The notes under the pieces: model-generated
What the model was told of the DNA's origin: nothing
Databases searched by the model: none
The model's input: only the letters and a program-made list of their open reading frames with translations
Program-made: the position numbers and the translations under genes
Shown here: piece after piece, positions 60,448 through 60,590 of the stretch
Numbering within the stretch: position 1 is the first letter of the stretch
Layout: each line of letters starts with the position of its first letter
Sequence record: OR844650
Direction: 5' to 3' (one strand)
DNA from: Escherichia phage ECO103 4-12-1
Length of the DNA: 64,000 nt

Positions 60448-60476
60448 GTTGACAAGTGCATCCAGTACTGGCATAA
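60448..60476 (+). promoter_or_regulatory. plus-strand sigma70-like promoter (antisense to gene polarity)
   Basis: TTGACA-N17-CATAAT read on plus strand; second copy at 62622..62650. Confidence 0.35.
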
Positions 60477-60483
60477 TTACTAC

Positions 60484-60590
60484 ATCAAGACGAAACAGTC
60501 ACTAACCCACCGGGTGCCGAGATCCGTCTATTAAATGATTCAGTACTGAAAAAGTAACGGGGAGTTATTATCTCCCCGCGTTGTTATTTT
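60484..60590 (+). ncRNA. candidate plus-strand small RNA (promoter to terminator, about 100 nt)
   Basis: Downstream of plus promoter; ends at CGGGGAG..CTCCCCG hairpin followed by T-rich run on plus strand; no ORF; contains AACCCACCGGGTGC shared with 62.66 kb copy. Confidence 0.25.

Follow-up and report, generated by a model that had tools for sequence, protein, structure and literature searches.

Promoter-linked copies of a structured RNA domain in the direct terminal repeat of RaK2-like jumbo phages, including a predicted noncoding transcription unit of Escherichia phage ECO103 4-12-1

In the 64,000-nucleotide (nt) stretch of Escherichia phage ECO103 4-12-1 DNA analyzed here (sequence record OR844650; hereafter, the window), a promoter-like sequence and a terminator-like hairpin occur on the plus strand at 60.45-60.59 kb, among genes read from the minus strand. 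The locus raises the question of what such a unit would produce and whether its product might be an antisense small RNA, as the original prediction proposed. The window belongs to an Asteriusvirus-type jumbo coliphage, showing 95-97% identity to SP27, G17, PBECO4, and 121Q. Mapping onto vB_Ec-M-J, which has an annotated direct terminal repeat of 21,525 bp, revealed that positions ∼44,965-64,000 of the window correspond to this terminal repeat in reverse orientation and that ∼2.3 kb separates the end of the window from the physical left end of the genome. Transcription of the minus-strand genes runs inward from this terminus, toward which the plus-strand promoters point. The unit at 60.45 kb was found to be one of seven copies in the window of a short RNA domain fixed behind host-type promoters, and we tentatively favor an immediate-early structured RNA that would act through its conserved fold, probably by binding protein, rather than through antisense pairing.

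Inspection of the plus strand confirmed the sequence TTGACA-N17-CATAAT at two sites, the first at 60449-60477, one base to the right of the start originally given, and the second at 62622-62650. Both have the form of σ70 promoters with an extended −10 element (TG two bases 5′ of the −10) and match 11 of 12 consensus positions, from which activity is predicted. At the first site, the −35 element TTGACA (60449-60454) is followed by a 17-nt spacer that includes TG at 60469-60470 and by the −10 element CATAAT at 60472-60477, an arrangement that is identical in G17 and vB_Ec-M-J. The string AACCCACCGGGTGC was present behind both promoters, at 60504-60517 and 62670-62683, where 0.07 chance matches would be expected. 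The view that these are the only convincing plus-strand promoters needs qualification, given that sites at 23036, 36928, and 49761 also score 11 of 12, but all three lack both the TG extension and the downstream motif. In agreement with the initial description, no open reading frame (ORF) of at least 25 amino acids starts past either promoter.

The hairpin with a T-rich tail that had been placed about 100 nt downstream was also recovered. It consists of CGGGGAG and CTCCCCG arms around a ttattat loop (60558-60578) followed by CGTTGTTATTTTG, and it lies ∼75-105 nt past a predicted transcript start at ∼60484. The stem (60558-60564 with 60572-60578) contains seven pairs, six of them G-C, and has the properties of an intrinsic terminator; as the proximal part of the CGUUGUUAUUUUG tract is interrupted, its efficiency is uncertain. 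The element (60558-60591) was detected on both strands, its tail reading CGUUGUUAUUUUG in the plus direction and UACUUUUUCA in the minus direction, and would therefore be a bidirectional terminator, which in the minus direction ends the gene at 60584-60835 and is annotated in G17 as a minus-strand terminator.

The geometry of promoter and terminator, together with the lack of an ORF, predicts a free-standing noncoding RNA of ∼103-108 nt at 60484-60590 on the plus strand (RNA E), its start being taken as the A of a conserved CAT, 7 nt past the −10 element, and its end being placed within the T-tract after the terminator. This RNA would contain a folded domain at 60488-60533 (54.3 bits and an expect value (E) of 2e-11 with covariance model R1; nhmmer E = 3e-10). 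Within it, a first hairpin (hp1) pairs GAC (60489-60491) with GUC (60498-60500) across a GAAACA loop and is joined by an ACUA linker to a second hairpin (hp2), in which ACCC (60505-60508) pairs with GGGU (60512-60515) across an ACC loop; GC, CGAGA, and U-CCG-UCUAU (60523-60531) follow. Past the domain, RNA E would continue with AGUACUG, an A-rich stretch, the terminator hairpin at 60558-60578, and a U-tract reaching to ∼60591. Alignment with two other Asteriusvirus genomes (G17 and vB_Ec-M-J) showed 99% identity over the whole unit, and equivalents of the same architecture are present in other genera. That 60449-60477 is a working σ70 early promoter making a noncoding RNA of ∼105 nt is the best explanation of these features. 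The A/U-rich sequence AUUAAAUGAUUCAGUACUGAAAAAGUAAC followed by a Rho-independent terminator with a U-tail corresponds to the layout of Hfq-dependent trans-acting small RNAs. Overlap with the neighboring coding sequence (CDS) is at most ∼7 nt (stop codon, 60584-60586), plus the terminator of that gene. RNA E is complementary only to this stop-codon region and terminator and so does not qualify as a cis-antisense RNA.

A search for further copies of the shared string yielded five more, all on the minus strand, at 46381, 49128, 52400, 55869, and 62729, and all behind the same type of promoter. Stated as the core pattern RCCCAYNGGGTGC, the motif occurs seven times in the window (two plus, five minus) compared with an expectation of 0.05. 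Both nhmmer (E = 1e-7 to 1e-12) and covariance model R1 recovered these same seven copies, termed A to G, and neither gave another significant match in the window. Every copy has a promoter of the form TTGACW-N17-TGnYATWAT in the same orientation, with the core 19-26 nt 3′ of the −10 element. The distance from the start site of this near-consensus σ70 promoter to the beginning of the copy is 13-21 nt. This position right behind the start site is fixed in every copy. The copies span 46.3-62.8 kb and thus lie within the terminal-repeat part of the window.

Comparison of the copies defined a domain of ∼46 nt composed of an optional hp1, a near-invariant hp2 (RCCC-N3/4-GGGU), GC with a purine run, and U-NNR-UCUAU. 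The transcript start is predicted at the A of the conserved CAT, 7-8 nt past the −10 element. Hairpin hp1, which is present in ∼60% of copies and starts 3-6 nt from the predicted 5′ end, has 3-5 bp and a purine-rich loop of ∼6 nt (GAGAAA, GCGAAA, or AGAUAA) and is followed by the linker (A)CUA. After hp2, whose loop has 3 or 4 nt, come GC, five mostly purine bases, and U-NNR-UCUAU.

Pair counts were made on 61 matches (53 distinct rows) aligned to the model, an alignment that is fitted to the model structure and includes copies from related phages that are not independent. Two-sided changes occur in all four hp1 pairs (72 cells), and 93.5% of cells are paired compared with 74.4% in shuffled alignments. 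The covariation score was 0.366, whereas shuffled alignments gave 0.132 ± 0.011 (none of 500 reached the observed value) and slid registers gave at most 0.056. At least 17 distinct hp1 stem sequences were distinguished by eye. In hp2, 23 rows have A-U as the outer pair and 26 have G-U, with A-C or C-A confined to at most 3 unpaired rows, an asymmetry that would be expected on the transcribed strand of an RNA hairpin. One Yersinia-phage copy has the hp2 sequence ACCU-UAUA-AGGU, a compensatory change from C-G to U-A. Taken together, the hp2 pair pattern, the compensatory change, the variable hp2 loop, the asymmetric conserved flanks, and the fixed orientation argue for selection on RNA rather than on a DNA palindrome.

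Several other properties of the domain were considered. A closing helix between the 5′ end (AUAGA/AGACG) and the 3′ UCUAU/CGUCU was rejected, given that matched ends gave a mean of −4.33 kcal/mol and mismatched ends a mean of −4.06 kcal/mol (permutation p = 0.14); it was omitted from the model, though it is possible in many individual copies. A small ORF or leader peptide was likewise rejected upon inspection, AUG/GUG-UAU-CUA or the four- to five-codon frame ending at AGUACUGA being found in some copies only and not conserved, with the purine run abutting the would-be start codon. Rfam 15 gave no match anywhere in the window at gathering thresholds and, at E ≤ 10 across 60380-62900, only an unrelated weak match to Corio-PBP (E = 0.44, 60803-60874). 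A self-cleaving ribozyme, a riboswitch, a type III antitoxin RNA, and a mimic of clustered regularly interspaced short palindromic repeats (CRISPR) were rejected on the lack of an Rfam match and of tandem repeats of the unit. By eye, the hairpin also does not match the E. coli type I-E or I-F CRISPR repeat.

To establish the distribution of the domain, public collections of viral and metagenomic sequences were scanned for the pattern, and profile searches were then applied. A total of 111 distinct copies was obtained, all from RaK2-like enterobacterial jumbo phages, and in 102 of these the promoter is in register (at least 9 of 12 consensus positions). A loose 14-base pattern scan of the viral collection was used only after filtering, as 87 of its 110 new loci had no significant nhmmer match and are mostly due to chance. 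With a 52-nt copy as query, matches were found in 65 GenBank phage records, again all RaK2-like jumbo phages, with hosts in Escherichia, Klebsiella, Salmonella, Erwinia, Yersinia, Serratia, Cronobacter, and Pectobacterium. The annotation over these matches is mostly blank, with a few hypothetical-protein CDSs and none marked as RNA. No match to the 52-nt domain was returned by blastn from 5,426 complete E. coli genomes, 8-12-nt seeds being below the resolution of this search, and an exact 20-base version of the motif was absent from 185,579 bacterial and archaeal species genomes.

Wherever genome termini are annotated (vB_Ec-M-J, CBB, and fENko-Kae01), the matches lie inside the terminal repeat of ∼21 kb, and close relatives carry 8-10 domain copies per repeat. 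In vB_Ec-M-J, copies are located at 1.1 (minus), 3.5 (plus), 3.6 (minus), and 5.6 kb (minus) and at 10.4, 12.1, 14.1, 17.3, and 20.1 kb (all plus), with a degenerate face-to-face pair at 1.3 kb. No copy was found in the other 45 kb of the window, in vB_Ec-M-J at 21.5-26 kb, or in G17 at 19.6-50 kb; confinement to the repeat was checked on ∼140 kb around the repeat and by whole-contig exact-pattern scans. The literature on the motif sequence and on promoters and small RNAs of Asteriusvirus and RaK2 yielded no description of the module.

The copies differ in their orientation relative to genes, and orientation was found to be linked to the presence of a terminator. Single copies were classified by the strand of the surrounding ORFs, a strong terminator being defined as a hairpin plus T-tract within 75 nt. 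Strong terminators follow 18 of 29 antisense copies but only 5 of 50 sense copies (Fisher p = 1.6e-6, the copies not being phylogenetically independent), and the five sense-copy hairpins are weak, A+T-rich, and overlap the next promoter. What follows an antisense copy is typically the converging upstream gene's bidirectional terminator, as at 60558-60578, which would give RNAs of ∼100 nt. Such terminators directly behind antisense copies look like the result of selection against antisense read-through. Sense copies, by contrast, begin inside a terminator, with their −35 element TTGACT forming part of a G+C-rich hairpin followed by TTTTGCTATTAT, and run into the next early promoter or, for one metagenomic copy, directly into a ribosome-binding site. 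Five of the seven window copies are on the minus strand, and approximately two-thirds of the classifiable copies elsewhere are sense. Given that the domain is mostly in sense orientation, that RNA E overlaps no more than 7 nt of CDS, and that terminators stand behind the antisense copies, the proposed antisense purpose is left unsupported, whereas the anatomy of a small noncoding plus-strand transcription unit holds in silico.

The second plus-strand copy, F, occurs in a different setting. Its promoter (TTGACA-N17-TGgCATAAT, 62622-62650) precedes a short form of the domain without hp1 at 62657-62699 (core, 62670-62683; R1 26.6 bits, E = 3e-4; nhmmer E = 1e-7), and no terminator follows, including before the gene at 62825-63055. 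Instead, copy F runs head-on into the convergent minus-strand copy G (62713-62794), which comprises the promoter TTGACT-N17-TGgCATAAT at 62794-62766 and the domain at 62757-62713 (core, 62742-62729). With predicted starts at ∼62658 for F and ∼62759 for G, the transcripts would be mutually antisense over ∼100 nt (∼62658-62759), the RNA of copy F being complementary to the leader of copy G. The two domains form an inverted repeat, and each RNA folds to a long hairpin (−38.5 kcal/mol, z = −4.0). Face-to-face pairs ∼60-90 nt apart include F/G (62.67/62.74 kb), two in Yersinia phage fHe-Yen9-04, and others in CBB and metagenomic jumbo contigs, so the arrangement is conserved across genera.

These observations can be accommodated by the following minimal model, which is held with a confidence slightly below even. 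The module would be part of a host-takeover region located in the direct terminal repeat, and host RNA polymerase would transcribe it upon DNA entry. The invariant folded domain (hp2, GC, the purine run, and U-NNR-UCUAU) would then serve as a protein-binding site through which a protein is either titrated or recruited, base pairing with opposite-strand genes not being the mode of action. If the folded domain is what acts, orientation is free: in a copy pointing antisense, the terminator directly behind the domain would keep the RNA short, whereas from a copy co-directional with genes the next early transcript would simply begin with the domain. In RNA E, one copy of the domain would occupy the first ∼50 nt, and the bidirectional terminator shared with the converging gene would form the end. 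A version of this model in which the 46-nt RNA alone, before any phage protein is made, titrates or redirects a conserved enterobacterial factor or a defense protein is considered rather unlikely, as is the corresponding picture of ∼10 copies per terminal repeat, and 20 per virion genome, firing from near-consensus host promoters as the DNA end enters.

Several points weigh against the protein-binding model. The RNA ends of all copies are predictions made from sequence. Hairpin hp2 is near-invariant, and its pairing is supported by one compensatory change and the A-U/G-U pattern; furthermore, because the alignment was fitted to the structure of the model, the pair counts lean toward it. No recognizable RNA-binding domain was detected by Pfam among the ∼50 terminal-repeat proteins scanned. 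Sense copies have neither a terminator nor an evident processing site, which would place the domain on long mRNAs, a layout no less suited to a leader acting in cis than to an RNA acting in trans, and the fixed position after the start in every copy would also be expected of a co-transcriptional element resembling nut or put. In addition, 11 of the 29 antisense single copies fall short of the strict terminator definition, some having hairpins without a good T-tract.

The main alternative, a co-transcriptional, cis-acting nut- or put-like element or programmed pause, is regarded as unlikely. The nascent two-hairpin RNA would stay on its own polymerase and, with or without a phage protein, alter pausing or termination, such that sense copies would head terminator-resistant early transcripts while antisense copies stayed short early in infection. 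At a later stage, when a factor appears, the antisense copies would pass their terminators and silence the outermost immediate-early genes by antisense transcription. The constant 13-21 nt between start site and domain is what such an element would show, and the sense copies, each immediately preceded by a terminator hairpin in which its own −35 element is embedded, within a terminator-dense region, have a “terminate, then restart with a tagged polymerase” layout. The adjacent hairpins recall HK022 put, the hp1 loops GAGAAA and GCGAAA recall boxB, and, as read from the alignment, most copies appear to fit a pattern resembling a pause site, G(−10)/Y(−1)/G(+1), at 8-10 nt past hp2. However, the antisense copies lead into no genes and retain behind them a good terminator that would be pointless under constitutive antitermination; the boxB-like hp1 is missing from ∼40% of copies, and only 2 of 111 have a boxA-like sequence nearby. 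The scan of terminal-repeat proteins detected no antiterminator-like domain of the N, Q, or any other type, and with nearly every early gene having its own promoter, a need for read-through is not obvious. Antisense action or transcriptional interference is improbable. Here, plus-strand RNAs would pair with minus-strand transcripts, or polymerases would collide, trimming or blocking read-through between early genes, with the same effect at F/G by way of ∼100 bp of double-stranded RNA. It is true that unit E, located between the terminator of the 60584-60835 gene and the promoter of the 60104-60340 gene, would be fully complementary to a read-through transcript, that the F and G transcripts would overlap, and that face-to-face pairs recur in several genera. 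Nevertheless, the conserved part is identical in sense and antisense copies, the sense ones lying in intergenic DNA, so its sequence is not set by a target; the coding overlap of E is minimal, most copies are co-directional with genes, and hp1 covariation reflects selection on the fold of the RNA itself.

A site acting at the DNA level is very improbable. The ACCC-N3/4-GGGT palindrome would be an operator at approximately +20 to +30 through which a dimeric phage or host protein shuts off the promoters, the RNA being a by-product. The near-invariant hp2 core is indeed palindromic as DNA, its distance from the promoters is fixed, and inverted pairs of copies exist. On the other hand, half of the copies place G opposite T (GCCC...GGGT) and never have GCCC...GGGC, which is a wobble tolerance typical of RNA, and a loop of 3 or 4 nt would alter the half-site spacing. 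Moreover, hp1 covaries yet keeps an asymmetric conserved loop, the flanks (CUA, GC-purines, and U..UCUAU) are conserved in a strand-specific manner with the motif always in promoter orientation, and the terminators behind antisense copies imply that the transcript matters. Slightly less credence is given to a role restricted to 5′-end stabilization, in which hairpins near the 5′ triphosphate would shield early transcripts from RNase E and RppH, like the ompA leader hairpin. The closeness of hp1 to the predicted 5′ end and the potential of 5′ AUAGA in short forms to pair with the conserved UCUAU are in keeping with this role, but it requires no 13-nt invariant sequence maintained across genera, free-standing antisense copies have no message to protect, and the 5′/3′ pairing does not covary (p = 0.14). 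Lastly, the attribution of the promoter-like hexamers to chance was named at the outset as an outcome that would undo the prediction, and under this reading the shared 14-mer would be a coincidence. The window is ∼66% A+T, and promoter-like sites are common in it (72 in 12 kb compared with 37 expected), but the recurrence of the 14-mer core pattern so far above expectation, the in-register promoters of 102 of 111 copies, the occurrence of the module in at least eight host genera, and hp1 covariation refute chance.

The four remaining window copies, all on the minus strand and in sense orientation, illustrate the design of the co-directional form. In copy D (55853-55942; R1 58.4 bits), the promoter TTGACT-N17-TGcTATTAT (55935-55907), whose −35 element lies within a terminator-like hairpin at 55942-55915, precedes the domain at 55898-55853. 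Copy C (52384-52468) is a short form with a hairpin-embedded promoter at 52468-52433 and a domain at 52425-52384, after which there is a Chi site. Copy B (49112-49194; R1 57.9 bits) has its promoter at 49194-49166 and its domain at 49157-49112, whereas copy A (46365-46442), another short form, has a promoter at 46442-46414 and a domain at 46401-46365, again followed by a Chi site. Composite terminator-promoters are present on the minus strand at 52468-52433, 55942-55907, 49201-49166, and 46449-46414. They consist of a G+C-rich hairpin (AAAGGGATTGACTCCGGTCAGTCCCTTT) with the −35 element TTGACT in its 5′ arm and a T-tract that merges into the extended −10 element (TTTGCTATTAT); on the opposite strand, the same hairpin has a T-run behind it and takes on the look of a strong terminator. 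The design recurs with other stem sequences in copies from RaK2, GAP32, a Yersinia phage, and metagenomes. At 54502-54474 of the window, the promoter occurs alone (TTGACATAGTTTGATAGTACTGACATAAT) and is directly followed by a ribosome-binding site and gene, whereas the counterparts in vB_Ec-M-J (12000-12111) and 121Q hold an extra sense copy (vB_Ec-M-J 12066-12111), indicating that domain copies have been gained or lost between close relatives.

A second and far more common promoter class is located 5′ of many small early genes and takes the form AAAAAGTACTTGCAA-N16-TATAAT followed by GTTTTACAT, a G/C-rich hairpin with variable arms (GGGGGAAnnnnTTCCCCC-like), and a ribosome-binding site. Examples on the minus strand are at 60415-60340, 60883-60836, 61773-61694, 62575-62398, 63135-63056, and 63812-63787. 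The sub-threshold Corio-PBP match coincides with one of these leaders and is likely to be spurious. In the window, 245 occurrences of the palindrome AGTACT were counted, compared with ∼21 expected from base composition (for example, at 60462-60467, 60543-60548, and 62636-62641), mostly in intergenic spacers as CAGTACTG and also in promoter spacers (CCAGTACTGGCATAAT), 5′ of −35 elements (AAAAAGTACTTGCAA), and just past each RNA domain. It may be a factor-binding site or mark a boundary between modules.

The inner edge of the direct terminal repeat (vB_Ec-M-J, 1-21525) corresponds to window position ∼44,965, where small genes set apart by intergenic spacers and served by promoters of their own give way to small genes that overlap and are tightly packed. 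Chi sites (5′-GCTGGTGG-3′) are strongly enriched on the gene-sense strand of the terminal-repeat part, with eight sites compared with 0.12 expected per strand for the whole window. These minus-strand sites span 46327-58622 and read CCACCAGC on the plus strand at 46327, 46550, 48127, 50026, 52373, 53274, 53987, and 58615. The equivalent strand of vB_Ec-M-J has nine Chi sites within the repeat, along with an inverted Chi pair ∼600 bp from the physical end, and a similar one-strand bias is seen in the RaK2, GAP32, and 121Q loci. This enrichment suggests protection of the incoming linear DNA from RecBCD. A specific link between Chi and the RNA module was rejected, because only two of the eight sites adjoin a copy, and Chi enrichment is therefore a separate property of the repeat.

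ARAGORN detected no tRNA or tmRNA in the window. A Pfam scan of 50 of the 52 listed terminal-repeat ORFs returned only a DksA/TraR zinc finger, a ParE-like protein, two DUF7249 proteins, DUF1033, and sub-threshold matches. The five ORFs with informative domains, all on the minus strand (50404-50655, 53459-53713, 61457-61693, 63496-63786, and 49216-49797), comprise a ParE-like toxin domain (E = 6e-11), a DksA/TraR C4 zinc finger (E = 1e-11), a pair of DUF7249 paralogs, and a sub-threshold protein kinase-like match. DksA/TraR-type C4 zinc-finger proteins bind in the secondary channel of RNA polymerase. No gene is annotated in the ∼1.8 kb at the outer end of the terminal repeat (vB_Ec-M-J, 1-1760; G17, 19040-20934). 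In vB_Ec-M-J, this segment holds an outward-pointing module copy (1129-1083), the degenerate face-to-face pair (1264-1327), the inverted Chi pair, and, at ∼780-920, short tandem repeats of GGCTAGAYGG-like units. This part of the repeat could serve in packaging, as an injection stop, or in replication.

Therapeutic use is being developed for jumbo phages of the RaK2/121Q group, of whose genes more than 80% are uncharacterized, as is the whole of their regulatory RNA. The module offers a concrete conserved element with coordinates, a covariance model, and a structure, located in DNA that is expected to be expressed first after infection. If it does bind a host or phage protein, it would be among the very few known structured phage RNAs employed for takeover, and the first multi-copy one; if it is instead nut- or put-like, it would show how the large early region of these phages is timed with only the host polymerase and a phage σ factor. 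As the module matches no Rfam family, lacks the defining features of nut sites, and is not a cis-antisense RNA, we rate it a new family of structured small or leader RNAs encoded by phages. Its unusual traits are its multiple copies, its confinement to the terminal repeat, its occurrence in both orientations with a terminator rule, and its conserved face-to-face pairs.

Among known systems, λ OOP RNA and λ 6S RNA (pR′-tR′) are short phage RNAs made from a constitutive σ70 promoter and ended by an intrinsic terminator. Copy E resembles both in its strong promoter of the host type, its untranslated product of ∼100 nt, and its terminator formed by a hairpin plus U residues, and it resembles OOP in pointing against its neighboring genes. 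OOP, however, pairs with the cII message, whereas copy E overlaps almost no CDS and its conserved part is also present in sense copies. At the λ 6S unit, Q antitermination opens the way into the late genes, whereas nothing lies behind copy E. Both λ units are single, whereas the module is multi-copy, and there is no sequence similarity. With λ nut and HK022 put, the module shares its placement in the first tens of nucleotides of early transcripts, its small hairpins (with purine-rich hp1 loops), and the terminators that follow. Unlike nut, it has a boxA (CGCUCUUA or GCUCUUUA with no more than one mismatch, from −90 to +60) at only 2 of 111 copies, and whereas boxB has a 5-bp stem and a GNRA-like pentaloop at every site, hp1 has 3-5 bp, mostly 6-nt loops, and is missing from ∼40% of copies; in addition, many copies of the module point away from any gene. 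No informative Pfam match to an N-like protein was found among the ∼50 terminal-repeat proteins, which is weak evidence given that N proteins are small and poorly modeled. Compared with put, the domain is shorter (46 versus ∼70 nt) and different in sequence, only the two-hairpin layout being comparable.

RNA sequencing of PA5oct revealed two highly expressed noncoding RNAs in its terminal repeat (ncRNA001 and ncRNA002), each accounting for 1-5% of phage reads; these are 236 and 451 nt long and are annotated on the plus strand, the strand of nearly all neighboring genes (PMC7318152). The module is like them in being noncoding and in its location in the long terminal repeat that holds the early genes; PA5oct, also a jumbo phage, belongs to the same broad group but is a distant relative. 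Expression was measured there and is predicted here. No homology was detected, as covariance-model searching of the PA5oct terminal repeat gave no copy of the domain (best E = 0.41). With regard to protein-binding RNAs, the GGA-in-loop motif of CsrA is not matched in about half of the copies (judged by eye), and the site is far smaller than 6S RNA. Under the protein-binding model favored here, a parallel, by analogy only, would be with CsrB/CsrC and 6S RNA, in that many copies of a protein-binding structure would set dosage by multiplicity, which in this phage would arise from many genes with one site each rather than from many sites on one RNA, as in CsrB/CsrC.

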